Shown here in pieces: positions 45,836-63,720 of a DNA stretch of 64,000 bases. The position numbers and the translations under genes are program-made. Positions within the stretch are counted from its first letter, which is position 1. Every line of letters starts with the position of its first letter. The notes beneath the pieces are model-generated. The model searched no databases, was not told the DNA's origin, and was given only the letters and a program-made list of their open reading frames with translations. Source of the DNA: Thermoanaerobaculia bacterium (GTDB lineage: Bacteria > Acidobacteriota > Thermoanaerobaculia > UBA5066); NCBI GenBank assembly GCA_963816185.1, contig CAWFJJ010000030.1, positions 352,001 through 416,000 on the forward strand. Direction: 5' to 3'.

Positions 45836-45850
45836 CGGCACGTTCGTTGC
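45836..45850 (+). promoter_or_regulatory. sigma54 -24/-12 motif for ku
   Basis: CGGCACGTTCGTTGC, then GGGAGGAGG RBS. Confidence 0.7.
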
Positions 45851-45872
45851 GAGCAGAAGGGAGGAGGTCTCG

Positions 45873-46737
45873 ATGCGCTCCACGAAGAGAAAACCTCACG
45901 CAGAGAGCGCTTCGCGCACGGCTCGGCGTGCAGTCTGGAAGGGCCGCATCTCGTTCGGGCTCGTGGGGATCCCGGTCGAGCTCGTGCCGGCCGTGGATGC
46001 CAGGGAGCATCTCGGTTTCCACCTCTTGCATCGCAAGGACCTCGCTCCCATCCGATACCGGAAATTCTGCAGCCAGGAAGATGTCGAGGTTTCGGATGAC
46101 GAGGTGGTGCGGGGATACGAGGCGTCGAAGGGGAAGTGGGCTGTCGTGGAGAAGGACGAGCTCGCCGCCGCGCGCACGGACGCGGGAGCGGGCACGGAGG
46201 CACACACGCTCGAGATCCTCTCGTTCCTGGGCACGGGACGCATCGACCCGTTGACGTTCGACCAGCCCTACTACCTCGTCCCGGACGAGGGCGGAGCCCG
46301 GCCCTTTGCCGTCTTTCGCAACGCGCTGGCGGCCTCGGACCGCGTCGGCCTCGGCCGCCTGAGGCTGCGGAGCCGCGAGCATCTGGCGGCTGTGATCGTG
46401 ATCCCGCACGGACTCGTCGCGATTCTGCTCAGGCCGTTCGAGGAAGTTGCCGCGGCGCCGTCGGCGGGGTCTCTGTCCGCGGGAACCGGAGAAATCAAGA
46501 TGGCGCGCCTCCTGATTGACCAGATGTCGGAGGAGGCGCTCGATCCGGCGAAGTACCCCGATCGGTATCGATCGGCGCTCAAGAAGCTGCTCGCCAAGAA
46601 GGGAGCCGTCGCCGGCACCGGCCGCAGCCGAGGGCCAGCCGGAGAAAGAGGGCCGTGTGATCGACTTGATGGAGGCGTTGCGCGCGAGCGTGGCTCGCCG
46701 CGGGGGCAAATCTCCGCGCAAGAGGCACGTCGCATAG
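45873..46737 (+). CDS. ku: NHEJ Ku protein, frameshift near 46600
   Basis: AVWKGRISFGLVGIPV, VVRGYE, FDQPYYLVP, YPDRYR; C-terminal VIDLMEALRAS lies in another frame. Confidence 0.87.
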
Positions 46738-46767
46738 GGGGCGACCGCGAAAGACACGGGAGGATCT

Positions 46768-46971
46768 ATGGCAGCGAGGAAATCTTCCAGACGGTACGGC
46801 AAGAAGGCGGGGGAGAAAGTGGAGCGCGCGATGCGTGAGATGAAGCAAGGCAAGCTGAAGTCCGGTCGTTCACACAAGACGGTCCGAAGCCGGAAGCAGG
46901 CGATCGCGATCGGGCTTTCCGAGGCGCGCGAGGCGGGCGGGAAGGTCCCGCCCGCCCCGAAGAGCAGCTGA
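46768..46971 (+). CDS. Small basic DUF6496-like protein
   Basis: GGAGG RBS; KVERAMREMKQGKLKSG..RKQAIAIGLSEAR. Confidence 0.8.
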   Translation: MAARKSSRRYGKKAGEKVERAMREMKQGKLKSGRSHKTVRSRKQAIAIGLSEAREAGGKVPPAPKSS

Positions 46972-46984
46972 CGACCGGGAGGTC

Positions 46985-47578: not shown

Positions 47579-47603
47579 GACAGTCCTCCCCGGTCAACAA
47601 GCA

Positions 47604-47618
47604 GCAACGGATGTGCCA
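47604..47618 (-). promoter_or_regulatory. sigma54 motif for the ferritin-like gene
   Basis: TGGCACATCCGTTGC, near-consensus. Confidence 0.75.
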
Positions 47619-47621
47619 CCG

Positions 47622-47658
47622 AAGAAAAGAAAAAGGGGACGTCGGCTACGACGTCCCC
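47622..47658 (-). terminator. Intrinsic terminator
   Basis: GGGGACGTCG-4nt-CGACGTCCCC followed by TTTTTCTTTT on the minus strand. Confidence 0.85.
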
Positions 47659-47689
47659 GACGAAGGAGCGGCGAGAGAGGCTCAGGCTC

Positions 47690-48025
47690 TCAGCTCGTGG
47701 GGTTCACGGTGAGCGTCTTGTTCCCGTTCGCATCCTTCGATTCGGTGATCTTCACCTTGGAGCCGACGGCTACTGCCGGGTCGACGGTGGTGTTCACGGA
47801 CTGAGAGTCGAGATCGAACGAACGCGTCTTCTTTCCGACGAGGACCTTGATCTCCTTCCCGGCCTGGTACTCCTTGACGGTCCCGACGACGATGTGGTCC
47901 TTCGACTTCATCGTGCCCTCCGTCGTCTTCACCTTCTTCTCGTCGGTCCTTTCCATCTGACCGAAGGCGGCCGTTCCGCCGAGGAGAAGGACCGAAACGG
48001 CGGAAGCGAAAAACTTGCGATTCAT
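47690..48025 (-). CDS. Small exported Lys/Thr-rich protein (OB-fold-like)
   Basis: GGAGG RBS, signal peptide MNRKFFASAVSVLLLGGTAAFG. Confidence 0.75.
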   Translation of the reverse strand: MNRKFFASAVSVLLLGGTAAFGQMERTDEKKVKTTEGTMKSKDHIVVGTVKEYQAGKEIKVLVGKKTRSFDLDSQSVNTTVDPAVAVGSKVKITESKDANGNKTLTVNPTS

Positions 48026-48048
48026 TCTTACCTCCCGAGACTTCGACT

Positions 48049-48063
48049 GCACCCTCCGTGCCA
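48049..48063 (-). promoter_or_regulatory. sigma54 motif for the 47690..48025 gene
   Basis: TGGCACGGAGGGTGC. Confidence 0.6.
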
Positions 48064-48065
48064 GG

Positions 48066-48683
48066 TCACGCCAGCGCCGACACGTGAACCTGCGCCCGCG
48101 CTGTCTCGAAGCGGTGAGTCGCGAGACCCCAGTCCGCCGCCGCGAGGAAAGCGTCGATGTACTCCGCGCGCTTCGTGCCGTAATCCATCATGAACGCGTG
48201 CTCGAAGACGTCCATCAGGAGCAGCACCGGGCACCCGGCGAGCTGGCCGCGGTCGTGCTCGTCGATCCAGACGTTGAAGAGCCGGCGCGCCTCCGCGTCC
48301 CAGACGAGCGCGGCCCAGCCAATTCCCCGGAGGCTTCCGGTCGCGCGAAACTCCTTCTCCCAGGCATCGTGCGAGCCGAAGTCGCGAGTGATCTGCGCCC
48401 CAAGGCCGGCAGCCTTTTCCAGATTCGTCCGGGTTTTTGTCAGATTTCCAAAGTACATCTCGTGAAGCCGCATCCCGTTCCACTCCCAGCCGAAGCGGCG
48501 CTTGAGCTCGGACCAGTAGGGAGCAGGCGGCTTGCCGGGTGAAGCTGATTCCAGCTCATCGTGAAGGGCGTTTGTGTTCTTCACGTACCCGCGGTAGAGC
48601 TCGAAGTGTTGCGTCAGAAGAGCGTCGCTGAATCCAGGCGTACCGAGGAGCCGCGTGAAATCCTGTGCCGAATAGAGAGCCAT
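48066..48683 (-). CDS. Fe/Mn superoxide dismutase family protein (ChrC-like)
   Basis: QHFELYRGY, LHEMYF, GWAALVWD, LMDVFEHAFMMDYG. Confidence 0.88.
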   Translation of the reverse strand: MALYSAQDFTRLLGTPGFSDALLTQHFELYRGYVKNTNALHDELESASPGKPPAPYWSELKRRFGWEWNGMRLHEMYFGNLTKTRTNLEKAAGLGAQITRDFGSHDAWEKEFRATGSLRGIGWAALVWDAEARRLFNVWIDEHDRGQLAGCPVLLLMDVFEHAFMMDYGTKRAEYIDAFLAAADWGLATHRFETARAQVHVSALA

Positions 48684-48706: not shown

Positions 48707-48740
48707 GCACGATCCGTTCCATGCGCGGCACGGCTGTTGC
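48707..48740. promoter_or_regulatory. Back-to-back sigma54 motifs (SOD gene and first lmo0937-like gene)
   Basis: Minus: TGGAACGGATCGTGC (48721-48707); plus: CGGCACGGCTGTTGC (48726-48740). Confidence 0.65.
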
Positions 48741-48920: not shown

Positions 48921-49003
48921 ACGCGTGCCGCAGCGCCCCCGAGGCGAGATCACGCGGCGGACGCGCGGCACGCCGCTTGAGTAAGGCCTGAGAGGAGGGG
49001 CTC

Positions 49004-49234: not shown

Positions 49235-49249
49235 AGGCACGGCGGTTGC
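49235..49249 (+). promoter_or_regulatory. sigma54 motif for the second lmo0937-like gene
   Basis: AGGCACGGCGGTTGC. Confidence 0.68.
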
Positions 49250-49574: not shown

Positions 49575-49949
49575 TCAGGGCGACGGGTGCTGAGGACGGC
49601 AGTGCTCGCCCACGGTCGCGAGCAGCCGAACGGGGTCGACCGGCTTTCGCAGCCAGCCGACGGCCCCGATCTCTCTGGCGTCGTCCGCCGCCCGGGCATC
49701 TGCCGTACACACGACGATGGGAATCGACGCGAGGGCTTCGTCCTTGACCTGCTCTTTCCGAAACTGCCAGCCGTTCATTCCGGGCATGGTCATGTCGAGA
49801 AGAATGACGCTCGTCCTCTCGCCCGAGCGGAGCTCTGCGAGCGCCGACCGGCCGTCCGGCACGTGGACAGCCCGGTACCCCTCGCTTTCGAGGAGGCTCG
49901 CGAGCGCCTGCGCGATCGCTTCGTCGTCTTCGACGATGAGAATCTTCAC
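49575..49949 (-). CDS. Single-domain response regulator (REC only)
   Basis: KILIVEDD, ILLDMTMPGMNG, VVCTA, LRKP; GTGA overlap with the kinase. Confidence 0.9.
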   Translation of the reverse strand: MKILIVEDDEAIAQALASLLESEGYRAVHVPDGRSALAELRSGERTSVILLDMTMPGMNGWQFRKEQVKDEALASIPIVVCTADARAADDAREIGAVGWLRKPVDPVRLLATVGEHCRPQHPSP

Positions 49950-51733
49950 TTCACCTCTCCCGTTCGTCTCGGCAGGGCGACCTGAAACATGGCCCCGGCG
50001 CCCGGACGACTTTCGACACCGATCCGCCCCCCGTGCGCCTCGACGATCTCGCGCGTGATCCACAGCCCGAGGCCCATCCCCGGGTAGGTCTCGCGCGAAA
50101 CGGCGCGCTCGAACCTTCCGAAGATCCGACGCTGGTCCGCGTCGTGGATTCCGATCCCGTGGTCCCTGACGAAAACGAAGGCCTCGTCTCCGACGGACGT
50201 CACGCGGACCTCGACCGGCTCGCCGGCGCCGAACTTCAACGCGTTCGTGAGGAGGTTCGAGAAAACCTGCTCCAGCCGGAGGCGATCCCAGAACCCGCTC
50301 ACGCTGCCCGGCGCGTCGACCACGAGTTTGCAACCGGCGCGCCGGGCGCTCTCCTCGAGCCGTTCCACGAGGTCGCGGGCGAGGAGCGCGAGATCCATCT
50401 CCTCGGGGTCGAGGTGCAGGCTGCCCGCCGAGATACGCGAAACGTCCAGCAGCTCGTCGGCGAGCCGGATGAGCCGGGCGACCTGCTTCTCGCAACGCGA
50501 CGCCAGGTCGACCGCCTTCTCGTTCCCGAGCGCCCGGACCTGCCGCGCGAGCTGGTAGACGATCAGGTTCAGGGCCGACAGCGGAGTCCGGATCTCGTGA
50601 CCGGCAACGGAGAGAAAGGCGTCGCGCGCCTTCACGGCGTCACGCGCCTCTTCGTAGAGGCGGTTGCGCTCGGTCTCCAGCCGCTTGAGCTCCGAGAGGT
50701 CCACGACGAAGGACGCGCGCACGGGGACGTGTCCGCCCAGGTCCACGTTCGTCGAGCCGAAAAGGACGGGGACGCGCGTCCCGTCGGTCCGCAGGAGCTC
50801 CTTCTGGTAGGGAGGGCAGGTGCCGGTCTCGCGCAGCGCCTTGTCACAGTTCTCGTCGAGCTCCTTGTACTCGGGCGCCGTGAAGCCGAAGAGTCGATGT
50901 TCGTGCGGCCTCCAGTTTTCGCGGTCGATCCCCACGATCGACAGAAACGCGCCGTTCGCGTCCGTGACGTGCCCGTCGTCCGAGAACAGGACGCCGATCA
51001 GGTTCGCGTCAATGAGGCGTCGGATGCGCGCCTCGCGTTCACGGATCGCCGCCTCGGCGCTGTTGCGCCGTGCGAGGTCGGCGCGGATGAGATACCAGAT
51101 GAGGATCAGGAAGCCGAACAGGAGGCCGCAGCCGATCCCGAGCGTCGTCAAGAGGGTCCGTGCCGTCTCGCTCGAGCGCCGGTCGCGGACCGCGAGAAGC
51201 GCTCGCTCTTCGGCCTTCATCTCGGTGATGAGCTGCCGAATCGCGTCCATCGACCTCTTCCCGACCCCGGTTTTCAGGTACGCGCGCGCCTCGTCTTCAT
51301 GGCCACGCTGCGCCATCTCGATCGTCCGGCTCATCTCGAGGAGCCGGTCTTCCGTCAGGTATCGAAGCTGCGAGGCGCGCGTCCGCTGCGCGGGGCTGTC
51401 GGCCGTGAGCGCGGCGATACGCTCGAGCCGCCGCGGAAGCTCGGAGACGGCGGCCCGGTAGGGGTCGAGGTACGAGTCCGAGCCCGTCAGGAGGAAACCC
51501 CTCTGGCTCGCCTCGCCGTCCTTGATGGCGGAGAACGCCCCCTCGAGCTCGCCGATGACGTCCTTGGTATGGTCCACGAGGCGGGCGTCCTCGATCAGAC
51601 GCGACGTGTTCACCCAGGTCACGGAAACGAGCAGCACGAGAGCCCCGAACGTCACGGCGATGGCGGCCGCGAGACGGGTGTCCATCCCGTGCGGCCGCCA
51701 CCGCGCGCCACTTCCTGTCGTTTCAACGCCCAT
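49946..51733 (-). CDS. CHASE3-PAS sensor histidine kinase
   Basis: Two TM flanking EASQRGFLLTG (CHASE3); PAS; GHEIRTPL, NLLTNALKF, DHGIG, GLGL. Confidence 0.92.
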   Translation of the reverse strand: MGVETTGSGARWRPHGMDTRLAAAIAVTFGALVLLVSVTWVNTSRLIEDARLVDHTKDVIGELEGAFSAIKDGEASQRGFLLTGSDSYLDPYRAAVSELPRRLERIAALTADSPAQRTRASQLRYLTEDRLLEMSRTIEMAQRGHEDEARAYLKTGVGKRSMDAIRQLITEMKAEERALLAVRDRRSSETARTLLTTLGIGCGLLFGFLILIWYLIRADLARRNSAEAAIREREARIRRLIDANLIGVLFSDDGHVTDANGAFLSIVGIDRENWRPHEHRLFGFTAPEYKELDENCDKALRETGTCPPYQKELLRTDGTRVPVLFGSTNVDLGGHVPVRASFVVDLSELKRLETERNRLYEEARDAVKARDAFLSVAGHEIRTPLSALNLIVYQLARQVRALGNEKAVDLASRCEKQVARLIRLADELLDVSRISAGSLHLDPEEMDLALLARDLVERLEESARRAGCKLVVDAPGSVSGFWDRLRLEQVFSNLLTNALKFGAGEPVEVRVTSVGDEAFVFVRDHGIGIHDADQRRIFGRFERAVSRETYPGMGLGLWITREIVEAHGGRIGVESRPGAGAMFQVALPRRTGEVK

Positions 51734-51743: not shown

Positions 51744-52769
51744 TCAGGCCGCGGCGTAGCCGCCCTGGGGAACCGCTTTCGGCCCGCGCTCGGAGCGGAT
51801 CGTCCGACTGAACAGCGAGAGCTTGCGGTCGAAGACGAAGCGCAGCAGCAGTCGAGTCCACGAGCGGTGGGACGAGAGGGCGTCGTACACCTCGGGCACG
51901 GCGCGTCGAACGGCCGGCAGCCGGTTCCACGGAACGGACGGAAAGTCGTGGTGCTCGTTATGGTGGCCGACGTTGAGCGCGATGATGTTCAGCGGCCCGT
52001 AGTAGCTCGACGTCTCCTGCCCTTCGAACACGAGGTAGTGCTCCTGGATCCAGCGCGCTCCGAGCGGGTGCAGGCCGACGGAGAAGAAGAACGAAACTGC
52101 GAGGTAGAGGAAAGCCTTCGGCCCGAGCAGCGTCCACACGGCGACGTCGTAGGCGATTTGCGCGGCGACGTTCGCGAACACCCAGGGCCCGAGGAGAGGG
52201 ATCTCGCCGAGGCGCGGCGGGCGCGTGAGCTGAAAGATCGGAAAAAGGAGGAGCCAGAGCGCTTTTCTGAGCGCGGAGTGTCCGACGAGCCGCGCTTCCC
52301 AGCGGCTCGGGATGTCCGCGTCCAGCTCGTAGACGCCCTGAAACGCGTGGTGCTTCAGGTGGTACGTCTGGAACGAGATCGCGCTCGGCAGGACGTGCGG
52401 GAAATTCGCGACGATCGCGGCGATCCGGTTCCAGGGCGCGCGCCGGAACACGAGATTGTGAGAGCACTCGTGGATGAGCACCCAGAGGGTGTGATCCAGA
52501 AAAGCGCCGACGAGGAACGCGGCGGCGAGCGCGGCCCAGACCGGCACGCGAAACATGAGCCCCGCGAGAAAGGTTTGCAACAGGACGAGACCGATCACGA
52601 GAAGAGCGCTCCACGCATTTCGTCCGGCGAGCGACCGGATCTCCGCGTGCCGACGGAGAATCTCGCGGGCCCGGAGTGCGTGCGGCTCACGCTCGTTGGA
52701 GAAGAGGAAATCCTCTTGCTCGGGCGTCTGGGTCGCCGGGATGGTCGTCGGCTCCGGAAGGAATGTCAC
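51744..52769 (-). CDS. Membrane desaturase, sphingolipid delta-4 desaturase (DEGS1/DES1)-like
   Basis: DF..EPHALRAREIL N-terminus; His boxes HECSH, HLKHH, HNEHH; SYYGPLN..NVG..HDFP. Confidence 0.85.
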   Translation of the reverse strand: MTFLPEPTTIPATQTPEQEDFLFSNEREPHALRAREILRRHAEIRSLAGRNAWSALLVIGLVLLQTFLAGLMFRVPVWAALAAAFLVGAFLDHTLWVLIHECSHNLVFRRAPWNRIAAIVANFPHVLPSAISFQTYHLKHHAFQGVYELDADIPSRWEARLVGHSALRKALWLLLFPIFQLTRPPRLGEIPLLGPWVFANVAAQIAYDVAVWTLLGPKAFLYLAVSFFFSVGLHPLGARWIQEHYLVFEGQETSSYYGPLNIIALNVGHHNEHHDFPSVPWNRLPAVRRAVPEVYDALSSHRSWTRLLLRFVFDRKLSLFSRTIRSERGPKAVPQGGYAAA

Positions 52770-52846
52770 GAATCTCCAACGAGTATCGCCGATTCCCTTT
52801 CCGGATTGAAACTTTTCCAATCTCGAAGCGCTCCGGAGGCCGCGGC

Positions 52847-52885
52847 GCAATGTCGATGCCCGCCCGGACGTGGCGTAGAGCTTGC
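52847..52885. promoter_or_regulatory. Divergent sigma54 motifs (desaturase-kinase operon and glucan gene)
   Basis: Minus: GGGCATCGACATTGC (52861-52847); plus: TGGCGTAGAGCTTGC (52871-52885). Confidence 0.6.
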
Positions 52886-52899: not shown

Positions 52900-55800
52900 A
52901 TGCTTGGTGAGCGCCGGCGCGGTCCCTTGGGGGAATTTCTGCCTCTCGAACGCCTCGAGGAACGTGCCCGCGCGCTCGGCGCCGCTTGGACCGTGGCGCC
53001 TCGAGGCGGCGGACGTCACGTGCTCTCACGCCTCGACGAGAACCTTCCGGTGCTCCGCCGCGCGTACCGCGTCCTCGCCTCGGACGTGCGGGCGGGCGAA
53101 GCGGTCACGCCGGCCGTCGCGTGGCTCCTCGACAATTTCCACCTCCTCGAGGCGGAGGTACGGGGCGCCCGGCACGACCTTCCGCGTGCGTACAACCGCA
53201 AGCTTCCGCGTCTCGTCGGGGCGGAGCACGGAGGAGCGGCGCGCATCGAAGCGCTCGCGTGGGACATCGTGGCGCAGAGCGACGCCCGCCTGGACGCGAT
53301 TTGGCTCGAGCGGTTCCTCGCCGCGTTCCAGACGGTCACCCCCCTCACGCTCGCCGAGCTCTGGGCCTGGCCGAGCTTCCTGCGCGCCGCTCTCGTCGAC
53401 CATTTGCGCGTTCTCTCGGACGATCTCCTCGAGATCCGCGCCGAGAGACTCCGGGCGGACGCCCTCCTCGCGCGCGATCCATCCGCGCGCCCGCTCCTCC
53501 CCGACCCTCCGCCGCCGGCGTTCGCAACACGTGTCCTCCAGCGCGCGCGGGAGTATGGAGCGAGCGCCGGTGGGCTCGTCGCGGCCCTTGCCGATCGGCT
53601 CGGCGCGACCGGGCAGACCCTCGAGGACGCGGTCCGCGCGGAAAACCAGCGACAGGCGGCCCTGCAGGTGTCGATCGCGAACGCGGTTTCCGCGCTGAGG
53701 CTCTGCGAAACGCTCGACTGGGGCCAATTCGTGGAACGCGTGAGCCTGGTCGACGAGGCGCTCCGGTACGACCCGGGCGGCGTCTATGGCCGCATGGATT
53801 TTTCGACCCGGGATCGCTATCGACACGCGATCGAAAAGCTCGCGCCCCGGAGCGGGGAGGATCAGGTTCGCGTCGCCCGGCGGGCCGCGGCCCGCGCTCG
53901 GGAGGCGCCGCCCGAAGCAGGTCCCCGGGTGGCGCACGTCGGATGGTTTCTCGTCGGGCCGGGCCGCCCCGAGTTCGAGAAAGACGTCGGACAGCGGCGC
54001 GGACCGATCGCGCGGATCCGGCGATCTTTCTTCCGGCATGCGGCGCCTCTCTACCTCGGCTGCATCTTCGTCCTGACGGCGGCAGGCCTTGTGGCCGTCT
54101 CGGCCTACGCGCGCGCCGCCGGCGTCGCGCCCGGAGTCGAGATGTGGGCCTTCGCGCTCGCGGCTCTGCCCATCTCCGAGATCGCCGTGTTTCTCGTTCA
54201 GCGATTCGTCGACGCGCTGATCCCGCCCCGCCGCCTCCCCCGGCTCGACTTCTCGACCGGCGTACCCGAAAGCGCCCGGACGCTCGTCGTCTTCCCGACG
54301 CTGTTCGAAGGGGTGGCGGCCGTCGAGCCCATGCTTCGCCATCTCGAGGTCCAGGCGCTCGCCAATCCGGACCTCCACGTGCACTTCGCGCTCCTCTCCG
54401 ATTTCGCCGACGCGGTCGATGCGACCCGGCCGGACGACGACGCGATCCTCGCTGCGGCCTCGCGCGGGATCGCGGCGCTGAACGCCGCGCACGGAACGGA
54501 ACGCTTCTTTCTCTTCCATCGCGTGCGGCGCTGGAACGCGTCCGAGGGGCTGTGGATGGGCTGGGAGAGAAAGCGGGGGAAGCTCGAGGAGCTGAACCGA
54601 CTGCTGCGCGGAGCGACGGACACGAGCTTCGGCCTGCAGGTCGGAGATCTTTCGATCCTGCCTTCCGTGCGTTACGTCCTCACGCTGGACAGCGACACGC
54701 GCCTTCCGCGCGATACGGCGCGCACGCTCGTCGGCATCCTCGAGCATCCGCTGAACCGGCCACGTCTCGACCCCGCGATCCGGCGCGTAACCGAGGGCTA
54801 CGGGATCCTCCAGCCGCGCGTGAGCATCGCGACGACGAGCGCCGCGTCGTCCCGGTTCGCGCGCGTCTTCTCCGGCCACACCGGCGTCGACCCGTATACG
54901 ACCGCGGTCTCGGACACCTATCAGGATCTCTTCGGCGAAGGCGTGTTCGCCGGCAAAGGCCTCTACGACGTCGACGCCTTCCAGACGGCTCTCGAAGGCC
55001 GCGTGCCGGAGAACTCCCTCCTCTCGCACGACCTGTTCGAGGGTCTTTACGCACGCACCGCGCTCGTGACCGACGTCGAAGTCGTCGACGACTATCCGAG
55101 CAATGTCCTCGCGCACGCGCGGCGCCAGCACCGCTGGGTGCGGGGCGACTGGCAGATCCTGCGATGGCTGCTTCCGCTCGTCCCGACGCGGCTCGGGCTG
55201 GAGCGCAACCGCCTGCCGCTCATCGCGCAATGGAAGATCCTCGACAACCTCCGGCGAAGCCTCCTGCCGCCGGCGCTCCTCGCGCTCTTCGCCGCGGGCC
55301 TCACCCTCTTGCCAGGCAATCCTCTCGTGTGGGTGCTTCTCGCCTCCTCGGTGCTGGCGCTTCCGCTCGTCGGCGTCCTGCGTTCCCTCGCGGCGGGTCC
55401 CCGCCCGCAGCAGCCGTCGCTTTCCTTCGTGCGAGAGCTCTTCGGGGATCTCGAAACCGCAGCCGCCCAGACGCTCGTCGGCTTCGCGTTCCTCCCCCAC
55501 TACGCATTCGAGTCCGTTCACGCGATCGTCCTGACGCTCGTGCGCCTCGTCGTCACGGGGCGGCGGCTCCTCGAATGGGAGACCTTCGCGAAGGCTGCGG
55601 CGCGTGCCGCCGGCCTTCTCGCCGCCGGAGGGCCGCGCTCGTTCTTCGTCGAGATGGCCTCGAGCCCGCTCGCGGCGGCGCTGCTCGCGCTCCTCGTAGC
55701 CGCCATGAGGCCATCCGCTCTCCCCCTGGCCGCGCCCCTGCTCGTCTTGTGGGCTCTCAGTCCCATTCTCGCGTGGTGGCTCAGCCACGCGGCGCCGTTC

Positions 55801-58800
55801 GGGCGCGAGGCGCTCTCGGCCGGCGACCGGGACTTCCTCCTCAGCACGGCGCGGAAGACGTGGCGGTACTTCGAGGAGCTCGTGCAGGAGGACGCGAACG
55901 GCCTCGCTCCGGACAATCTCGCCGTATCGCGGGACGGGGGCTCTCCGCTGATCGCGCCGCGCACCTCCCCCACGAACATCGGCCTCGCGCTTCTCGCGGA
56001 CCTCGCCGCTCACGACTTCGGCTGGCTCGAGACGGACGCCCTCCTCGCGCGACTCGACCGGACGCTCCGCACCGTCGAGGGCCTCGAGCGCTGGAGAGGG
56101 CATCTTCTCAACTGGTACGACACGCGGACTCTCGAGCCGCACGAGCCGCGATACGTCTCGACGGTCGACAGCGGCAATTTCGCTGCGTGCCTCCTCGTGC
56201 TCGCCCAGGGGCTTCGCGAGATGCGGGCCGACGGCGATCTCTTGCGGGCGCAGGATCTCGCGCGGCGCGCCCGGTCTCTGGCCGACGTAATGGACTTTCG
56301 CCCGCTCTACGACGCCTCGCGCGGGCTTTTCGTGACCGGATGCCGCCCCGGCGTCCACGACACCGTGAAGCGCGACGAGACGTTCTACGACCTTCTCGCC
56401 TCGGAGGCGCGCCTCGCGAGCTTCCTGGCCATCGCCAAGGGCGACGTGCCTCAGAGCCACTGGTTCCGGCTCGGCAGACTCGCCGTGACCCTCCACGGGA
56501 TTCCGACGCTCCTGTCGTGGAGCGGCTCGATGTTCGAGTACCTCATGCCGCTCCTCTTCACGCGGACGTACCCGCAAACTCTTCTCGACGCGTCGTGCCG
56601 CATGGCGATCCGGCGCCAGGAGGAGTGGGGGCGCGCGCACGGCGTGCCGTGGGGAGCTTCCGAATCGGCATATCGCGTCACGGACCTCGTGGGCGAGCAC
56701 CAGTACCGGGCCTTCGGCGTCCCCGGCCTCGGCTTTCGCCGGGGCCTCGACGAAGACCTCGTCGTGGCGCCTTACGCGTCCGCTCTCGCCGCGCTTCTCG
56801 CGCCCGCCAAGGCGGTGAAGAACCTGCGCGCCTTCGCGGCGGCGGGAGCAGAAGGCCCATGGGGCTTCTGGGACGCGCTCGACTACACGGAGGGAGACGC
56901 GCCTGCCGAGCCGGACGCTCTCCCGCGCACCACGGATGGGCGCGGCGTCATCGTGCGCACGGCTTTCGCACACCACGAGGGAATGAGCCTCGTCGCGTTC
57001 GCGAATGTTCTCCTCGGCGACGTAATGGTGAGGCGCTTTCACGCGGATCCGCGGGTGCGCGCCACCGAGCTCCTCCTCCAGGAGCGCCCGCCCCGCGAAG
57101 CGCCGGTGCCTCAGCCGCGCCCCACGGAAGACGAAGTGCTTCCGCTGCCGGCGTCGCCGGCCGCGGCTCCGCGCCTTCTGCGCTCTCCGCACCAGCCTTT
57201 CCCGGTCACGCAGTACCTGTCCAACGGCACGCTCGTCTCGGCAATCACGCAGGCAGGTGGAGGTGCGAGCTTCTGGCGCGGTCTGTCGGTGGCCCGCCAC
57301 CGCGAGGACCCGACCTCGGATCCGGTCTCCAACGCTCTCTATCTCCGCGACGTGCGAAGCGGCGCCGTCTGGTCCGCCACGTTCGCGCCCACGCGGCGCG
57401 AGCCCGAGCTCTATCGGGCGACGTTCCTTCCCGAGCTCGCCTCGTTCCGGCGGCGCGACGCGGAGATCGAGTCGTTGCTCGAGGTCGCGGTGTCGCCAGA
57501 AGACGACGTCGAGGTCCGCCGCCTGACGCTCACGAACCTCAGCGACACGACACGCGAGATCGAGGCCACGAGCGCCGTCGAGATCGCGCTCGCCAAGCCG
57601 CAGGACGACGTCGCGCATCCCGCCTTCGGGAAGCTCTTCCTCGAGACCGAGGCGGTCCCCGCGGACGCGGCGCTTCTCTGCACCCGGCGCCCGCGGACGG
57701 CAGGCGAGAAGCCGCTCTTTGCGGTCCACGTCCTCGCGGCCGCGGCACGCGTGCAGGGGCCTCTCGAGTGGGAAACCGACCGTGTGCGCTTCTTCGGGCG
57801 AGGGCGCGACGCGTCGGACCCGGAGGCGATGGAGCGCCGGGCGCTCTCGGGAACGACCGGGACGGTGCTCGAGCCGATCCTCAGCCTGAGGCAGCGCGTG
57901 CGACTTGCGCCGGGCGCGATCGCGCGTTTGACGTTCACGACGGGCGTCGCGGACACGCGCGGGGCCGCGCTCGCCCTCGCGCAGAAGTATCACGACCCGT
58001 CCGCGGCGGTGCGCGCCTTCGCGCTCGCGCGGACTCACGCGCAGGTCGCGGTCCGGCATCTCGGGCTGACGCCGGAGGAGGCGCACCTCTTCGAAAGGCT
58101 CGCGTCGAGAGTCCTCGGCTCGGATCGCACGCTCGCCGCGCCTCCCGCCGTGCACGAGGCGAACACGCTCGACGTGTCGGCTCTCTGGCGCCGCGGGATC
58201 TCGGGCGACCTGCCCCTCCTCGCCGTGCGCATCGAGCGCGCCCAGGATCTCGCTTTGGCGCGACAGGCGCTCGAAGCACAGGAATACTGGCGGCTCAAAG
58301 GCCTCGTGGCGGACCTGATCCTGCTGAACGAGCACGAGGAGGGGTACCGCAAGGAGCTTCACGACCTTCTCACCCTTCTTGTCGAGCGCGGCCCCTGGGC
58401 TTCACGCGCCGGCAAGAGCGGCGGGGTCTTCCTCCTCAGAGCGGATCTCCTGAGCCCGGACGATCACCGCGCGCTCCTCGCATATGCGCGCGCGGTCCTC
58501 CGCGGGGAGGACGGCAGCCTCGCGATGCAGCTCGACCGCGCCGCGCCCTTTGTGCCGGAAGCGCCCCCGCCCCCCGCCGCCCGCCCGCGGGCCGTTCTGG
58601 AGGCAGAAAGGCCGCCGTCCGGGCTGAAGATGGCAAACGGCTTCGGGGGGTTCGGAGAGGGCGGCCGCACGTACGAGATCGTGCTCGAGGGAGCCCGCGA
58701 GACGCCTCTCCCCTGGACGAACGTTCTCGCGAACCCCCGCTTCGGCTCCCTCGTGACGGCCTCCGGCGCCGCGACGACCTGGTCCGAGAACAGCCGCGAG

Positions 58801-61488
58801 AACCGTCTCACGCCTTTCGCGAACGACCCGGTGAGCGACCCGCTGCCGGAGGCCGTCTTCGTTCGAGACGAGGAGACCGCCGACGTCTTCGGTGCGACAC
58901 CGGGAGTCCGCCCGCGGGAGAAGGAGGGCCTCTGGCTCGTGACGCACGAGGCGGGCCTGTCGCGGTTCCGGCGGAGGACGGCCGGAATCGTGCGCACGTT
59001 CGAGACCTTCGTCGCCCATGAGGACCCGGTCAAGCTGATGCTCCTCACGCTCGAGAACACCTCGGGCAGGTCCCGCCGCCTCTCCGTCTTCGCGTACGCC
59101 GAATGGGCTCTCGGTCCGCCGCGCCCGGAGGCGCCGCGGCACGTCGTCACGTCCGTGGCGCCCGACCTCCGCGCGATCCTCGCGCGCAATCCAGCGAGCG
59201 TGGATTTCAAGACGCGCGTCGCGTTCCTCGCCTCGAGCGAGCCCCTCGTCTCGTTCACCGCGGATCGCCGCGAGTTCCTGGGCTCTTTCCGGAACGTTCG
59301 CGCGGCGGCGGGCCCGCACTGCGCGCGGCTCTCGGGCCGGACAGGCGGAGGTCTCGACCCCTGCGCGGCCCTGCACGTCGCCGTGGCGCTCGAGCCGGGC
59401 GAGTCCCGCACGCTCGTGTTCCTCCTCGGCCAGGGGCGGGACGACGAGGAAGTGCGGAGTCTCGCGGCACGCTTCTCGCCGCCGAGCGAGGCCGCGAAAG
59501 AGAAGGAGCGCGTGAAGGCCGCGTGGGATGAGACGCTCGAGGCGCTCGTCGTCGAAACCCCCGACGACTCGCTCGATCTTCTCGTGAACCGATGGCTCCC
59601 CTGCCAGGCGATCGCCTCCCGCCTCTTCGGACGCACGGGTTACTACCAGCCCGGCGGCGCCTGGGGCTTTCGGGACCAGCTGCAGGACGTTTCCTCGCTC
59701 GTCCTCATAAGGCCCGATCTCGCGCGCGAGCACCTCCTGCGGGCTGCTCGACGACAGTTCCGCGAGGGCGACGTGCAGCACTGGTGGCACGAACCTTCCG
59801 GGCGGGGAACGCGCACGCGCTGCTCGGATGACCTGCTCTGGCTCCCCTGGGCGGCCCTGCGGTACGTCGACGTCACGGCGGACGCCTCCGTGTGGGACGA
59901 GAAGACCCCTTATCTTGAGGCCCCTCTCCTCGCCGAAGGCCAGCGGGAGTCGTACCTCGAGCCCGCCGTCTCGTCCGAGACCGACACGCTCTTCTCTCAC
60001 GCCGCGCGCGCCATCGACGCCGCGCTCACGGCAGGCGCGCAGGGCCTCCCGCTGATCGGCGCGGGGGACTGGAACGACGCCATGAACGAGATCGGCCCTG
60101 AGGGCCGAGGCGAAAGCGTCTGGCTGGGCTTCTTTCTCCATTCCGTGCTCGTCCCGTTCGCCGCGCTCTGCGAGAGACGCGGAGACGCCGCCCGCGCCGC
60201 GCGCTACCGGAACGAGGCCGAACGGCTGCGGCACGCGCTCGACCTCGCGTGGGACGGCGAGTGGTATCGGCGCGGGACGTTCGACGACGGGTCCCCGATC
60301 GGATCCCGGCGGAACGTGGACGGACAGATCGACTCGATCGCCCAGTCGTGGGCGGTGCTCTCCGGCGTGGCGCCGGCCGCCCGCGCAGAGCGGGCGCTCG
60401 ACGCCGTGCGGTCTCGCCTCGTCAGACGCGACGCCGAGATCGTCACGCTGCTCGCGCCGCCGTTCGACCGCGGTCCGGAGGATCCCGGCTACATCAAAGG
60501 CTATCCGCCGGGGATTCGCGAGAACGGGGGCCAGTACACGCACGCCGCCGCGTGGGTCGTCATGGCGGCGGCCGCGCTGGGCTCCGCCGACGAGGCGCTC
60601 GAGCTCTTTCACATGCTCAATCCGGTGAACCACACGCGCACCGAGGCGGCCGTGATGCGTTATGGGGGCGAGCCGTACGTCGTGGCGGGAGACGTGTCGG
60701 CCCACCCCGCCCATCTCGGACGCGCCGGCTGGACCTGGTACACCGGCTCGGCGGGCTGGCTTTACCGCATCGCCACGGAAAGCCTTCTCGGCCTTTACCT
60801 TCGAGGCGCCGAGCTGATTCTCGATCCCCGCATTCCGTCGACGTGGCCTTCCTACTCGGTCTCTCTTCGCGTCGGCGGCACACGCTGGAAGATCCGGATC
60901 GAGAACCCGGACGGAAAGACCAGCGGCGTTCGGGGCCTTCGAGTCGACGGGAGGGAGCTGCCGGGAAACGTCGTGCCCCTCCTCGATGACGGAGGCGTTC
61001 ACGAGGTCAGGGGCGTCCTCGGCGGCACGATCACGGCGCGTGAGCGGGCGACCGCCTCACCCGCGCGCACCCGTCCGCCGTCCGAGCAGCCCGGGGCGCG
61101 CGAGAACGTGCCGGCACAAGCGCAGCCGGACGTTCTCGTCGTGGACGACGACCGCGCGCTGCGCGACGGCATCCTCCGTCTTCTCGACGACGAGGGATTC
61201 AGCGGGATCGGAGCCGAGGATGGTCTCGAGGCGCTCCAGCACCTGGACGCGGGCCTTCGTCCCCGCCTCGTCCTCGTGGACCTCGAGATGCCGCGGATGA
61301 ACGGCTGGTCGTTCGTGAGGAGGATCGAGGAGCAGCCTGCGCTCGCTTCGCTTCCCGTCGTCGTGATGTCCGGCATCGCGACTCCGGGATTCGCGCCGGC
61401 CCGGCGGAACGACGCGGGCTTCCTCAAGAAGCCGCTCGCGCCCGCGGAGCTCCTCCGGGTGACCCGCCGGTACGCGTCCGGGCGATGA
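52900..61488 (+). CDS. ndvB: NdvB/Cgs-like cyclic beta-1,2-glucan synthase/phosphorylase (GT + glucoamylase-like + GH94) with C-terminal receiver domain
   Basis: WERKRGKL, TLDSDT, SHDLFEG, RWVRGDWQ; TSPTNIG, WSGSMFEYLMP; GAWGFRDQLQD, GDWND, RENGGQYTH, WYTGSAGW; tail VLVVDDD..VDLEMPRMNG..KKP. Confidence 0.88.
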   Translation: MLGERRRGPLGEFLPLERLEERARALGAAWTVAPRGGGRHVLSRLDENLPVLRRAYRVLASDVRAGEAVTPAVAWLLDNFHLLEAEVRGARHDLPRAYNRKLPRLVGAEHGGAARIEALAWDIVAQSDARLDAIWLERFLAAFQTVTPLTLAELWAWPSFLRAALVDHLRVLSDDLLEIRAERLRADALLARDPSARPLLPDPPPPAFATRVLQRAREYGASAGGLVAALADRLGATGQTLEDAVRAENQRQAALQVSIANAVSALRLCETLDWGQFVERVSLVDEALRYDPGGVYGRMDFSTRDRYRHAIEKLAPRSGEDQVRVARRAAARAREAPPEAGPRVAHVGWFLVGPGRPEFEKDVGQRRGPIARIRRSFFRHAAPLYLGCIFVLTAAGLVAVSAYARAAGVAPGVEMWAFALAALPISEIAVFLVQRFVDALIPPRRLPRLDFSTGVPESARTLVVFPTLFEGVAAVEPMLRHLEVQALANPDLHVHFALLSDFADAVDATRPDDDAILAAASRGIAALNAAHGTERFFLFHRVRRWNASEGLWMGWERKRGKLEELNRLLRGATDTSFGLQVGDLSILPSVRYVLTLDSDTRLPRDTARTLVGILEHPLNRPRLDPAIRRVTEGYGILQPRVSIATTSAASSRFARVFSGHTGVDPYTTAVSDTYQDLFGEGVFAGKGLYDVDAFQTALEGRVPENSLLSHDLFEGLYARTALVTDVEVVDDYPSNVLAHARRQHRWVRGDWQILRWLLPLVPTRLGLERNRLPLIAQWKILDNLRRSLLPPALLALFAAGLTLLPGNPLVWVLLASSVLALPLVGVLRSLAAGPRPQQPSLSFVRELFGDLETAAAQTLVGFAFLPHYAFESVHAIVLTLVRLVVTGRRLLEWETFAKAAARAAGLLAAGGPRSFFVEMASSPLAAALLALLVAAMRPSALPLAAPLLVLWALSPILAWWLSHAAPFGREALSAGDRDFLLSTARKTWRYFEELVQEDANGLAPDNLAVSRDGGSPLIAPRTSPTNIGLALLADLAAHDFGWLETDALLARLDRTLRTVEGLERWRGHLLNWYDTRTLEPHEPRYVSTVDSGNFAACLLVLAQGLREMRADGDLLRAQDLARRARSLADVMDFRPLYDASRGLFVTGCRPGVHDTVKRDETFYDLLASEARLASFLAIAKGDVPQSHWFRLGRLAVTLHGIPTLLSWSGSMFEYLMPLLFTRTYPQTLLDASCRMAIRRQEEWGRAHGVPWGASESAYRVTDLVGEHQYRAFGVPGLGFRRGLDEDLVVAPYASALAALLAPAKAVKNLRAFAAAGAEGPWGFWDALDYTEGDAPAEPDALPRTTDGRGVIVRTAFAHHEGMSLVAFANVLLGDVMVRRFHADPRVRATELLLQERPPREAPVPQPRPTEDEVLPLPASPAAAPRLLRSPHQPFPVTQYLSNGTLVSAITQAGGGASFWRGLSVARHREDPTSDPVSNALYLRDVRSGAVWSATFAPTRREPELYRATFLPELASFRRRDAEIESLLEVAVSPEDDVEVRRLTLTNLSDTTREIEATSAVEIALAKPQDDVAHPAFGKLFLETEAVPADAALLCTRRPRTAGEKPLFAVHVLAAAARVQGPLEWETDRVRFFGRGRDASDPEAMERRALSGTTGTVLEPILSLRQRVRLAPGAIARLTFTTGVADTRGAALALAQKYHDPSAAVRAFALARTHAQVAVRHLGLTPEEAHLFERLASRVLGSDRTLAAPPAVHEANTLDVSALWRRGISGDLPLLAVRIERAQDLALARQALEAQEYWRLKGLVADLILLNEHEEGYRKELHDLLTLLVERGPWASRAGKSGGVFLLRADLLSPDDHRALLAYARAVLRGEDGSLAMQLDRAAPFVPEAPPPPAARPRAVLEAERPPSGLKMANGFGGFGEGGRTYEIVLEGARETPLPWTNVLANPRFGSLVTASGAATTWSENSRENRLTPFANDPVSDPLPEAVFVRDEETADVFGATPGVRPREKEGLWLVTHEAGLSRFRRRTAGIVRTFETFVAHEDPVKLMLLTLENTSGRSRRLSVFAYAEWALGPPRPEAPRHVVTSVAPDLRAILARNPASVDFKTRVAFLASSEPLVSFTADRREFLGSFRNVRAAAGPHCARLSGRTGGGLDPCAALHVAVALEPGESRTLVFLLGQGRDDEEVRSLAARFSPPSEAAKEKERVKAAWDETLEALVVETPDDSLDLLVNRWLPCQAIASRLFGRTGYYQPGGAWGFRDQLQDVSSLVLIRPDLAREHLLRAARRQFREGDVQHWWHEPSGRGTRTRCSDDLLWLPWAALRYVDVTADASVWDEKTPYLEAPLLAEGQRESYLEPAVSSETDTLFSHAARAIDAALTAGAQGLPLIGAGDWNDAMNEIGPEGRGESVWLGFFLHSVLVPFAALCERRGDAARAARYRNEAERLRHALDLAWDGEWYRRGTFDDGSPIGSRRNVDGQIDSIAQSWAVLSGVAPAARAERALDAVRSRLVRRDAEIVTLLAPPFDRGPEDPGYIKGYPPGIRENGGQYTHAAAWVVMAAAALGSADEALELFHMLNPVNHTRTEAAVMRYGGEPYVVAGDVSAHPAHLGRAGWTWYTGSAGWLYRIATESLLGLYLRGAELILDPRIPSTWPSYSVSLRVGGTRWKIRIENPDGKTSGVRGLRVDGRELPGNVVPLLDDGGVHEVRGVLGGTITARERATASPARTRPPSEQPGARENVPAQAQPDVLVVDDDRALRDGILRLLDDEGFSGIGAEDGLEALQHLDAGLRPRLVLVDLEMPRMNGWSFVRRIEEQPALASLPVVVMSGIATPGFAPARRNDAGFLKKPLAPAELLRVTRRYASGR

Positions 61489-61515
61489 TTCGAGGCGCCG
61501 CCGGGCGCGCGGGCC

Positions 61516-62982
61516 TCAGGGCTCGAGCTTGTATTGCTTGATCTTGTTGTAGACGGTCTTGAGGCTCACGCGGAGGATCTCGGCGGCCTTCTTCTTGTTG
61601 CCTGAGACGGCCGCCAGCGTGCGCTCGAGAAGACGGCGCTCGACGTCCTCGAGCGAGTCCCCCACGCGGACCGGCACGCGGAGAGGATCGTCCGGCGCGG
61701 GCTGCTCGACGGCGCGGTTCGCCGCCGAGCCTTCGGCGGCCGCGGCGGACGGCTCGGTGGGAGGCCGTGGCGAGGCCGGCGCGGGCGGGCGCACGGCGGC
61801 GAATACCCCGCTCGCGCGGCCGGCGAGAACCCCAGCCACGATCGATTCGTCCACGACCCCGTCGTCCGAGAGCACGTACGCGCGGTGGACGACGTTTCGA
61901 AGCTCGCGCACGTTGCCGGGCCACGGGTGCGCGGCCAGCTTCTCGAGCGCGGCGGCCGAGAAGTTCCGACGTCCTCCCTCCTCGCTCTCGGCGACGAGGT
62001 CGAGGAAGTGTTTGGCGAGCACGGGGACGTCCTCGCGGCGTTCGCGCAGGGGCACGATGTGCAGCGGGAAGACGTTGAGGCGGTAATACAGGTCCTCCCG
62101 GAGCGTCTTCTTCTCGACGGCCTCGAGAAGATCGCGGTTCGAGCTCGAGATGACGCGAACGTCGCACCCGATCTCGTCGTTGCCTCCGACCCGACGGAAC
62201 GAGCGCGTCTCGAGCACGCGCAGGAACTTGACCTGCAGGTCGGCGGACATCTCGGTAATCTCGTCGAGAAAAAGCGTGCCGCCGTGGGCGAGCTCGAAAT
62301 ACCCGGCGCGGCGCTTGTCGGCCCCGGTGAAGGCGCCTTTCTCGTGCCCGAAAAGCTCGCTCTCGATCAGGTTCGCCGCGACCGCGCCGCAGTTGATCGC
62401 CACGAGCGGCTTCTCGCGCCGGCGCGAAAGCGAGTGGATCGTCTGTGCCGCCGCTTCCTTGCCGCTGCCGCTCTCGCCCGTGATCATGACGGGCGCATCC
62501 GAGCGCGCGATTCGCGCGATGACCGCGCACGTCTCGCGCATGGCGTTCGAGACGCCGACCATCGCCCCGAAGTGTCCGGTCTCGTCCAGGGTCTTCCACA
62601 GGGCGGCATCGCCGTCCTGAGAAGGACCCCCGGGCCGTAGGCGCTCGAGCACGGCTTCGAGCTGCACGGGACGAAGAGGCTTGACGAGATAGTCGAAGGC
62701 GCCTGCCTTCATCGCCTCGACCGCCGTGTCGAGCGATCCGTGGCCCGTCAGGACGACGATCTCCCGGCGAGGATCCGCGGCGCGGGCATCGCGGATGAAA
62801 TCGATGCCGTCCCCGTCGGGAAGCTGGAGATCGGTGAGACAGACGTCCGGATCGAACGACGCGAGAGCCGCGCGCCCCTCCGCGAGCGTCGACGCGGCTT
62901 TCACGTCGAGATCGAACTCCTCGAGGAGCATCTGAACTCCCTTTCGGGTCTCGGAGTCGTCTTCGACGACGAGGATCTTCAT
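61516..62982 (-). CDS. sigma54-dependent (NtrC-family) response regulator: REC-AAA+-HTH
   Basis: DLQLPDGDG, GESGSGKE, ESELFGHEKGAFTGA, LFLDEI, WPGNVREL, Fis-type HTH. Confidence 0.95.
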   Translation of the reverse strand: MKILVVEDDSETRKGVQMLLEEFDLDVKAASTLAEGRAALASFDPDVCLTDLQLPDGDGIDFIRDARAADPRREIVVLTGHGSLDTAVEAMKAGAFDYLVKPLRPVQLEAVLERLRPGGPSQDGDAALWKTLDETGHFGAMVGVSNAMRETCAVIARIARSDAPVMITGESGSGKEAAAQTIHSLSRRREKPLVAINCGAVAANLIESELFGHEKGAFTGADKRRAGYFELAHGGTLFLDEITEMSADLQVKFLRVLETRSFRRVGGNDEIGCDVRVISSSNRDLLEAVEKKTLREDLYYRLNVFPLHIVPLRERREDVPVLAKHFLDLVAESEEGGRRNFSAAALEKLAAHPWPGNVRELRNVVHRAYVLSDDGVVDESIVAGVLAGRASGVFAAVRPPAPASPRPPTEPSAAAAEGSAANRAVEQPAPDDPLRVPVRVGDSLEDVERRLLERTLAAVSGNKKKAAEILRVSLKTVYNKIKQYKLEP

Positions 62983-63659
62983 CGGCCCACCATCGGCAGG
63001 GATCCTGTCACGGTCAGGTGCGTTTCGTCCTCTTTGCCCTCCAGCCGGCCCCCGTGCGCCTCGAAGGTCCAGCGCGCGAGAAACGGGCCGAGCCCCGCAT
63101 TCGGGCGGCTGCGCGTCTTGAACAGCATCTCGCCGGGCGCTCCGCGCGCGAGCGGGACGCGAAACGAAAACGATACCGTTCCATCGTGCAGGTGCGTCTC
63201 GAGCTGCGCCTCCCCGGCCGCGGCCCAGCGCGACGCGGTCAGGAGCGCCTCCTGAGTCGCGGCCTCGAGCTCATCCTCGAACCCGTCCACGAACGCACCC
63301 TCCGAGGGCCCGACGCTGCGCAGCCTCAGGCCCCGCTGCTCGAGCTCCGGCACGCGTGCCCGAGCCGCGCGCGCCACGAGCGCCGCGAAATCCAGGAGGC
63401 CGGGGTCTCCCTCGTGGGCGCTTCCGAGCGCCGTGAGGCCGTCGAGAAGCCGGGAGGCCTCTTCGAGCTGCTCTTTCCCCGTCTCGAGGCCGGCGCGAAG
63501 CTTCTCAGGGATCGCCTCCTCGGCGCGGGCGGCGGCGCGCCGCGCGACCTCCAGGTGGAGAGCAGCGGCCGAAAGAGGAGTCGCAAATTCGTGACGCAGC
63601 GCACGGCATGCCCGAAGCGTGGCTCCCAGCCTATGCTGTTCGAAGGTCTCACGCACCAT
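62979..63659 (-). CDS. Sensor-less HisKA protein with degenerate HATPase (possible ChpT-like phosphotransferase)
   Basis: LRHEFATPL H-box; no recognisable N-box Asn or DxGxG; residual AGLG..HGGRL; ATGA overlap with the activator. Confidence 0.65.
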   Translation of the reverse strand: MVRETFEQHRLGATLRACRALRHEFATPLSAAALHLEVARRAAARAEEAIPEKLRAGLETGKEQLEEASRLLDGLTALGSAHEGDPGLLDFAALVARAARARVPELEQRGLRLRSVGPSEGAFVDGFEDELEAATQEALLTASRWAAAGEAQLETHLHDGTVSFSFRVPLARGAPGEMLFKTRSRPNAGLGPFLARWTFEAHGGRLEGKEDETHLTVTGSLPMVGR

Positions 63660-63705
63660 GACGGCTCTTTTCTGGGCCTGGAAAACGCATGTAAACATCC
63701 AAATA

Positions 63706-63720
63706 GCAATGCTGGGGCCA
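63706..63720 (-). promoter_or_regulatory. sigma54 motif ahead of the HisKA-like/activator operon
   Basis: TGGCCCCAGCATTGC(T). Confidence 0.62.

Follow-up and report, generated by a model that had tools for sequence, protein, structure and literature searches.

Predicted sigma-54 promoters in a conserved cluster of stress-protection genes of a Thermoanaerobaculia bacterium

Ku, ferritin-like and lmo0937-type genes are typical of general-stress regulons, which are usually under SigB, RpoS or EcfG, and sigma-54 depends on an activator carrying the GAFTGA motif. To our knowledge, master regulators of general stress or dormancy are known for few phyla and not for most uncultured, high-GC environmental lineages. 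Here, we analyze a 64,000-nt stretch of a Thermoanaerobaculia genome (G000:C30:352001-416000, hereafter the window; genome G000 comprises 5.09 Mb in 30 contigs, with ~68% G+C) and weigh the evidence that the genes at 45.8-63.7 kb are read from sigma-54 (-24/-12) promoters. An earlier, sequence-only reading had called this region an island and proposed that it is a general-stress regulon run through sigma-54 by its own activator. Rather than a mobile island, the region is a cluster of stress-protection genes that is conserved in the chromosome and syntenic in the relative G011.

Among described systems, Nla28 of Myxococcus xanthus is an NtrC-type two-component activator proposed for many sigma-54 promoters of defense and regulatory genes. 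The preprint presents it as a starvation regulon activator that acts at its own promoter and binds tandem 8-bp repeats, with most of its target promoters located in or against neighboring coding sequence (bioRxiv 10.1101/2021.11.28.470282). In Desulfovibrio vulgaris, some of the sigma-54 two-component activators serve small stress regulons together with their own operons; these regulons consist of one to a few operons each, and DVU3305 is tagged “general stress response” in a table (PMC4641369). In Listeria, lmo0937 is reported to be PrfA-regulated and newly found to be down-regulated by a SigB inhibitor (PMC3225968). Full-text literature searches, supplementary files aside, returned no description of a regulon such as the one considered here, and none of a Ku, Fe/Mn superoxide dismutase (SOD) or Dps-like gene as a sigma-54 target.

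The sequence-only reading had listed ten motifs in the cluster, and all ten are present and aimed at the genes it named (Table 1). We scored each against TGGCAC-N5-TTGC, with GG and GC exactly 10 nt apart as the key criterion. One site is perfect, five have one mismatch, three have two with GG and GC kept, and one, at 48966, ends in TTGA and has no -12 GC; the GG-N10-GC core is therefore present in 9/10 sites, with 0-2 mismatches each. The added remark that no such motif precedes genes in the first 45 kb also stands, as positions 1-45 kb hold no site with at most one mismatch. For eight of the ten sites, we regard the sigma-54 promoter reading as well supported and hold it with high confidence. 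These eight very probably serve Ku, the ferritin-like gene, a small exported protein, the Fe/Mn-SOD, two lmo0937-family (DUF5670) membrane peptides, a glucan synthase, and the operon of a small kinase and the activator.

Raw motif density is no evidence by itself; the evidence sits in position, exact spacing, and conservation. Genome-wide, 113 sites with at most one mismatch were counted, which is not above the 84-117 of an order-3 Markov background (5 simulations), and at up to three mismatches the window is not enriched (351 versus 382). With the genome-wide total at background, a lone site means little without position and conservation. Both counts speak for an explanation by chance, with GC-rich DNA producing GG-N10-GC matches at random, or by another DNA-binding protein whose sites these would be. 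At most one mismatch, however, the window holds seven matches versus 1.60 ± 1.33 in 100 dinucleotide shuffles of it, none of which reached seven. Six of the seven lie within 45.8-63.7 kb, each ahead of a gene, and the seventh (59785) is inside a gene and lacks the GC. The densest 4-kb cluster of sites in the genome is formed by five within 3.4 kb here (Poisson 4e-8 per window), and the second-densest, at C24:563-586 kb, holds a paralogue of the activator. Spacing is likewise specific. Among sites with at most one mismatch, 14/113 with the N5 spacer stand in strict promoter position, against only 1-3 of 74-130 for each of the control spacers N2-N4 and N6-N8; with at most two mismatches, the figures are 49/1284 for N5 and 9-25 for the other spacers.

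Conservation was followed in 40 relatives, of which 24 belong to the same genus (family f1) and 16 to two further families of the order (f2 and f3). The counts take in loci of the unpublished genomes G025 and G030 (L020, L221, L227, L253, and L260), and the conclusions are unchanged without them. Within the genus, the ferritin gene has a site with 0-1 mismatch in 16/16 non-self loci, twice directly upstream and 14 times before a preceding co-oriented gene; the perfect motif is retained in G011 and G003 with different flanks. The preceding gene at these operonic loci starts with MEN(I/L/T)YSP in 13/14 cases and is read as ElaB-like from its sequence, without a family match, and the fourteenth is an exported-protein-like gene. 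In other families, 6/13 ferritin loci have a site with at most two mismatches. SOD has a GG/GC site (at most two mismatches) in 14/15 non-self loci, with the 15-mer TGGAACGGATCGTGC identical in six, and in every case it stands back-to-back with the promoter of DUF5670. The latter is found, again with at most two mismatches, in 8/8 orthologous loci examined. Promoters are also retained for the exported protein (10/10 orthologous loci), the glucan synthase (5/5), and the kinase-activator operon (10/11).

The Ku encoded here, which we term island-type, has a site directly upstream in 14 of 17 non-self loci and before a preceding small Cys-rich gene in two more; one locus has none. A second Ku paralogue, ~30% identical (G000:C28:621533-622342), is without a sigma-54-type site in 12/12 loci, 10 of which have a TAGAAT -10-like box near the ATG. 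In relatives (L233-L242), promoters of the TTGAGA-N17-TAGAAT type precede the ATG of this second, canonical Ku by a mere 7-10 nt. These patterns suggest that two Ku genes in one genome are wired differently and that the sigma-70 transcripts of the second would be leaderless. Across the phylum, island-type Ku occurs in 3/201 genomes sampled, G000 included, and its single match outside the order has no site with at most one mismatch in the locus.

For the eight sites, then, the GG-N10-GC core stays, across up to three families, as flanking sequence drifts. Together with the enrichment and clustering at one mismatch, the specificity of the N5 spacing, and a motif that is not palindromic and always aimed at a gene, this argues against chance matches or an unrelated binding protein, an explanation that we consider already largely refuted and highly improbable. 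The claim of ten sigma-54 promoters does not extend to the other two sites with the same strength. Behind the 48966 motif, the acidic 71-aa open reading frame (ORF) belongs to no family, has a coding score near zero, and gave no tblastn match in seven relatives. The desaturase-kinase site has the motif, and an identical one stands before a CHASE3 kinase in G003, but only 1/5 orthologous loci retain it.

The machinery for such promoters is encoded as expected. The gene rpoN is present in G000 and in 40/41 related genomes (G000 included), the sole miss being a genome only 51% complete. As the sequence-only reading had noted, a GAFTGA activator is encoded at the cluster edge: GAFTGA is read in the translation, and the domains are Pfam Response_reg (2e-25), Sigma54_activat (1.4e-68), and HTH_8 (3.2e-12). 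The protein is under every NCBIfam equivalog cut-off (ntrC TIGR01818, 391.4 bits versus 558.6). As a query against genome contigs, it finds distant homologues of at most 47% identity, mostly in Acidobacteriota plus many other phyla. Thirteen genomes of the genus carry an orthologue at 76-93% identity; in G011, G010, G021, G006, and G004 it shares a contig with the ferritin gene, at a distance of 5-16 kb. In family f2 (G027 and G031), an activator homologue (54-55% identity) is followed by DUF5670 and then the Ku operon, both with sigma-54 sites; in family f3 (G034), DUF5670 and a small kinase lie within the locus around an activator homologue. Elsewhere in G000, the C24:563-586 kb cluster encloses a paralogue of 52% identity (BLASTP) whose recognition helix is almost identical and which is accompanied by a small kinase of its own; the cluster also includes a BON protein and a third DUF5670 copy, among others.

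Because the activator is linked to target genes across three families, it is, on synteny alone, the likeliest activator of these promoters, and the neighborhood evidence points to the pair of paralogues as putative activators. Regulation by the local activator is plausible, with the balance tilting slightly in its favor. The reading that we favor, with reasonable though not strong confidence, is that almost every transcription unit in the cluster is read from its own sigma-54 promoter, with the local activator and its paralogue as the likeliest regulators. In the proposed mechanism, sigma-54 holoenzyme would sit at the cluster promoters as closed complexes, and a phosphorylated NtrC-type response regulator, most likely the one at the cluster edge together with its paralogue, would open them by ATP hydrolysis. 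Transcription from the predicted starts would then depend on rpoN and on whichever signal induces phosphorylation. The small putative kinase is predicted to be co-transcribed with the activator, and as their operon has a sigma-54 promoter of its own, induction would be self-reinforcing if the activator acts there. For the positive autoregulation that had been claimed, as for the wider claim of one regulon under this activator, synteny is the sole basis, and a shared enhancer motif was not found.

Several observations weigh against the favored reading. Beyond the genome-wide counts and the poorly retained desaturase site, the layout is unusual in that promoters form three back-to-back pairs (two in the cluster and one in relatives) with 4 to about 20 bp between -24 elements. 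For SOD and DUF5670 the gap measures 4 bp here and 4-7 bp in most relatives; the desaturase and glucan-synthase elements stand 9 bp from each other, and in relatives about 15-20 bp separate the element of the ElaB-like gene from that of its divergent neighbor. This leaves no intergenic room for a classical enhancer; enhancers would lie inside coding sequence, or might be needless. Exact k-mers and perfect dyads were compared across the ten upstream regions, and no shared enhancer emerged. Perfect inverted or direct repeats of 5-6 nt (gaps 0-15) were scanned in the 262 nt upstream of each of 21 promoters from the two clusters, against 2000 random regions, and none was common to four or more; degenerate enhancer sites are beyond the reach of these exact scans. 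In addition, the activator homologue of family f3 is not near Ku or the ferritin gene, and genomes without the 76-93% orthologue keep the promoters, so another activator must serve there. This is probably the paralogue, which the same genomes keep.

An AT-rich sequence beside the Ku promoter was considered as an enhancer and rejected, as it is one arm of a genome-wide repeat. This repeat, TTCTTAGAAGG (consensus about gaaTTTCTTAGAAGGgGAA), has 337 genomic copies, and no gene start lies within 120 nt after 251 of them. In the window it forms inverted pairs 85-100 nt apart at 3134/3218, 32821/32921, and about 45735/45819, one copy abutting the Ku promoter; the pairs resemble the ends of a miniature inverted-repeat (MITE/REP-like) element.

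A second interpretation takes the sigma-54 promoters as real and denies that they form one regulon. Several activators would each serve one or a few promoters in response to different signals, with the neighboring activator controlling its own operon only, perhaps the glucan synthase too. The sigma-54 activator family has 43 matched stretches in the genome, or about 35 genes, and with so many candidates assignment by neighborhood can be wrong. The missing common enhancer motif, the unlinked activator in family f3, and the promoters that persist without an activator orthologue all fit this interpretation. So does the kinase-activator promoter, which differs from the rest in its TGGCCC at -24 and a private GTAA-N3-TTAC element common only to that of the Cu/Zn-SOD (SodC). 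On the other side, in three families the activator or its paralogue adjoins DUF5670, Ku, or the ferritin cluster, each of the two densest site clusters holds one of the paralogous activators, and the recognition helices of the two are nearly identical. On balance, division among several activators seems to us somewhat unlikely.

The distance between motif and start codon bears on whether the favored promoters would be working ones. Ku, the ferritin gene, the exported protein, SOD, and both DUF5670 copies have their motif 22-27 nt ahead of the start codon, so that the ribosome-binding site falls just past the expected transcript start; the glucan synthase has 14 nt and the kinase-activator operon 46 nt. 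With promoters 14-46 nt ahead of start codons, leaders would be very short. The start codon of the glucan synthase, ~12-16 nt past the -12 GC, is conserved in G011, G010, G019, and G021, and its nearness to the GC means that a transcript from the predicted promoter would be almost leaderless. The sigma-54 holoenzyme might instead bind mostly as a stable closed complex, leaving the genes silent or poised and expressed largely from other, unrecognized promoters. Back-to-back sites without enhancer room are indeed atypical for activation, and SodC lies behind sigma-70-like promoters in most relatives, which implies that promoter class is interchangeable in this group. A search of 45.6-53.0 kb for sigma-70-like promoters, however, found none (0.4 expected), and the constant 22-27 nt with a ribosome-binding site just past the expected start is the geometry of a working promoter. 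We consider such poised complexes quite improbable as the main explanation.

Outside the cluster, near-consensus sites precede genes for two BON (BON/OsmY-like) proteins, SodC, MscS, a CBS protein, a glycine-zipper protein, WXXGXW proteins, DegP, and a thioredoxin-like protein, and a further gene read as ElaB-like, without a family match. At annotation level, general-stress-type content is thus met both in the cluster (Ku, ferritin/Dps-like, SOD, and the lmo0937 family) and behind sigma-54-like sites elsewhere (BON twice, SodC, MscS, CBS, and DegP). Stress and envelope protection is a real common theme, and its extent differs between genus and order. The BON site is present in 12/12 genus orthologues and 0/3 of those in family f2, and SodC has a sigma-54-type site in 2/19 loci (L244-L262), those of G000 and G011. 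At the other 17 SodC loci, sigma-70-like -10 boxes (TAGAAT, TATCAT, or TATTAT) are seen, which amounts to a turnover of promoter class.

Part of the stress defense of this bacterial group is probably under sigma-54. The bolder claim of the sequence-only reading, that the lineage runs its general stress response through sigma-54, fits the gene content, but 26 genome loci score over the cut-off for the sigma-70 region-2 family (two of them in long open frames), some links, such as BON and SodC, are genus-only, and 7/13 ferritin loci outside the genus have no site. We find the claim plausible but overstated, and doubtful in the form given. It is similarly doubtful that, in this order, sigma-54 and two paralogous, self-induced NtrC-type activators do the job of RpoS, SigB, or EcfG.

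Table 1. Predicted promoters, genes, and other elements of the cluster (positions in the window)
Feature	Position	Strand	Evidence and remarks
Predicted sigma-54 promoter of Ku, CGGCACGTTCGTTGC	45836..45850	+	1 mismatch; ATG 22 nt on
Ku (non-homologous end joining, NHEJ), island-type paralogue	45873..46838	+	Pfam Ku 1.1e-33; NCBIfam Ku_bact 204.6 bits, cut-off 150
Ferritin-like (Dps/bacterioferritin-like) protein, 197 aa	46985..47578	-	Pfam Ferritin 8.9e-28
Predicted sigma-54 promoter of ferritin-like gene, TGGCACATCCGTTGC	47604..47618	-	Perfect match; ATG 25 nt on
Intrinsic terminator between exported-protein gene and ferritin promoter	47635..47658	-	10-bp stem + T-run
Small exported protein, 111 aa	47690..48025	-	From ATG 48025; no known family
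Predicted sigma-54 promoter of exported protein, TGGCACGGAGGGTGC	48049..48063	-	1 mismatch; abuts SOD stop codon
Fe/Mn superoxide dismutase	48066..48683	-	Pfam Sod_Fe_C 1.7e-22
Predicted sigma-54 promoter of SOD, TGGAACGGATCGTGC	48707..48721	-	2 mismatches, GG + GC kept
Predicted sigma-54 promoter of lmo0937/DUF5670 copy 1, CGGCACGGCTGTTGC	48726..48740	+	1 mismatch
lmo0937-family membrane peptide copy 1, 50 aa	48768..48920	+	NCBIfam NF033488 66.6 bits, cut-off 30
Weak motif, CGGCACGCCGCTTGA	48966..48980	+	Ends TTGA, no -12 GC; probably not functional
Predicted sigma-54 promoter of lmo0937/DUF5670 copy 2, AGGCACGGCGGTTGC	49235..49249	+	1 mismatch
lmo0937-family membrane peptide copy 2, 50 aa	49274..49426	+	NCBIfam NF033488 62.7 bits; Pfam DUF5670
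CHASE3-PAS sensor histidine kinase, downstream of desaturase	49946..51733	-	
Fatty-acid/sphingolipid-type desaturase	51744..52769 (start approximate)	-	Pfam FA_desaturase 1.4e-26, Lipid_DES; start inferred from G011 orthologue
AT-rich near-palindrome TTGAAACTTTTCCAA, between desaturase and glucan-synthase promoters	52806..52820	.	1 genomic match
Candidate sigma-54 promoter of desaturase-kinase operon, GGGCATCGACATTGC	52847..52861	-	2 mismatches; partly conserved
Predicted sigma-54 promoter of glucan synthase, TGGCGTAGAGCTTGC	52871..52885	+	2 mismatches; likely ATG 52900
NdvB-like cyclic beta-1,2-glucan synthase (GT2 + GH94), ~2860 aa, C-terminal receiver	52900..61488	+	Pfam GH94 1e-138, 8.4e-106
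NtrC-family activator: receiver + sigma-54 AAA+ (GAFTGA) + Fis-type HTH	61516..62982	-	
Small putative histidine kinase, no sensor domain	62979..63659	-	Pfam HisKA 21.3 bits, under 26.9 cut-off; in-frame ATG 63659
Predicted sigma-54 promoter of kinase-activator operon, TGGCCCCAGCATTGC	63706..63720	-	1 mismatch; TGGCCC at -24
Palindrome GTAA-N3-TTAC, candidate operator	63723..63733	.	2-3 nt upstream of kinase-activator -24 element

Several features of the cluster deserve comment. The strong terminator between the exported-protein gene and the ferritin promoter indicates that these two genes are separate transcription units, and the exported protein has two paralogues elsewhere in the genome (L174 and L187), likewise behind sigma-54-like sites. 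For the ferritin-like protein, every NCBIfam Dps and bfr model stays under its cut-off. The receiver of the glucan synthase (Pfam Response_reg) spans residues 2751-2859, and the enzyme may be phosphorylation-controlled through it, perhaps by the divergently encoded CHASE3-PAS kinase. Elements similar to TTGAAACTTTTCCAA are seen in G003, G011, G004, and G007.

The GTAA-N3-TTAC palindrome has only four distinct exact copies in the genome, and a matching or near-matching element is found in the flank of 10 orthologous kinase-activator promoters. A near copy, GCAATCCTTAC, occupies the same place before the SodC sigma-54 site (G000:C8:368464-368474), and both promoters have TGGCCC at -24. In the second cluster, a 166-aa protein (L176, G000:C24:580509-581009) behind its own sigma-54-like site consists of a Fis-type helix-turn-helix (HTH) only, with no AAA+ domain; this HTH closely resembles the DNA-binding ends of both paralogous activators, and the protein could compete for their sites.

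Two observations concern the rest of the window. A short sigma-70 region-2 match in the polysaccharide-gene part (11490-11687, minus strand; G000:C30:363490-363687) is probably an extracytoplasmic function (ECF)-type sigma factor, judged by its 295-aa open frame. The sequence TGAACCAnAGGTTGC occurs five times in 16700-17700 (17021, 17150, 17279, 17405, and 17669), four of them about 129 nt apart, and this recurrence suggests a gene with tandem repeat units.

If the two paralogous activators and sigma-54 did take the place of RpoS, SigB, or EcfG in this order, which we hold to be doubtful, DNA-end repair, iron sequestration, superoxide removal, membrane peptides, and osmoprotective glucan synthesis would form one survival program. 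Its architecture would be unusual, as back-to-back promoters with almost no leader would imply either that enhancers are buried in genes or that the activator works from solution and needs no specific enhancer. The tight back-to-back pairs are a natural test case for enhancer-dependent promoters that lack enhancer room. Comparative genomics alone yields a testable wiring: one promoter class, a candidate activator with its kinase, and no fewer than eight target promoters, whose conservation ranges from genus to order level.

Finally, the cluster can be placed among the known systems. It shares gene types with RpoS, SigB, and EcfG regulons (Ku, Dps-like, SOD, and the lmo0937 family). It differs from them in that its predicted promoters are of the -24/-12 class and would need an ATP-driven activator in place of an alternative sigma-70-family factor, and in that control would operate through response-regulator phosphorylation, not partner switching or proteolysis. 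Relative to classical NtrC, PspF, and RtcR, the promoter class and the receiver/AAA+ GAFTGA/Fis-type HTH plan are alike, whereas the activator reaches no equivalog cut-off, its putative targets are others, and no upstream enhancer is evident. Like the Nla28 system, the locus combines an NtrC-type activator with predicted sigma-54 promoters of defense genes, and enhancers inside coding sequence, as considered here, are reported for most Nla28 targets. Unlike for Nla28, no binding repeat comparable to the tandem 8-bp repeats was found, the promoters stand back-to-back at 4 to about 20 bp, and the gene set comprises Ku, a Dps-like protein, SOD, lmo0937 peptides, and a glucan synthase. As in D. 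vulgaris, the genome is sigma-54-rich, with many two-component activators; unlike the small regulons reported there, at least eight adjacent promoters here cover DNA repair and iron and oxidative defense.

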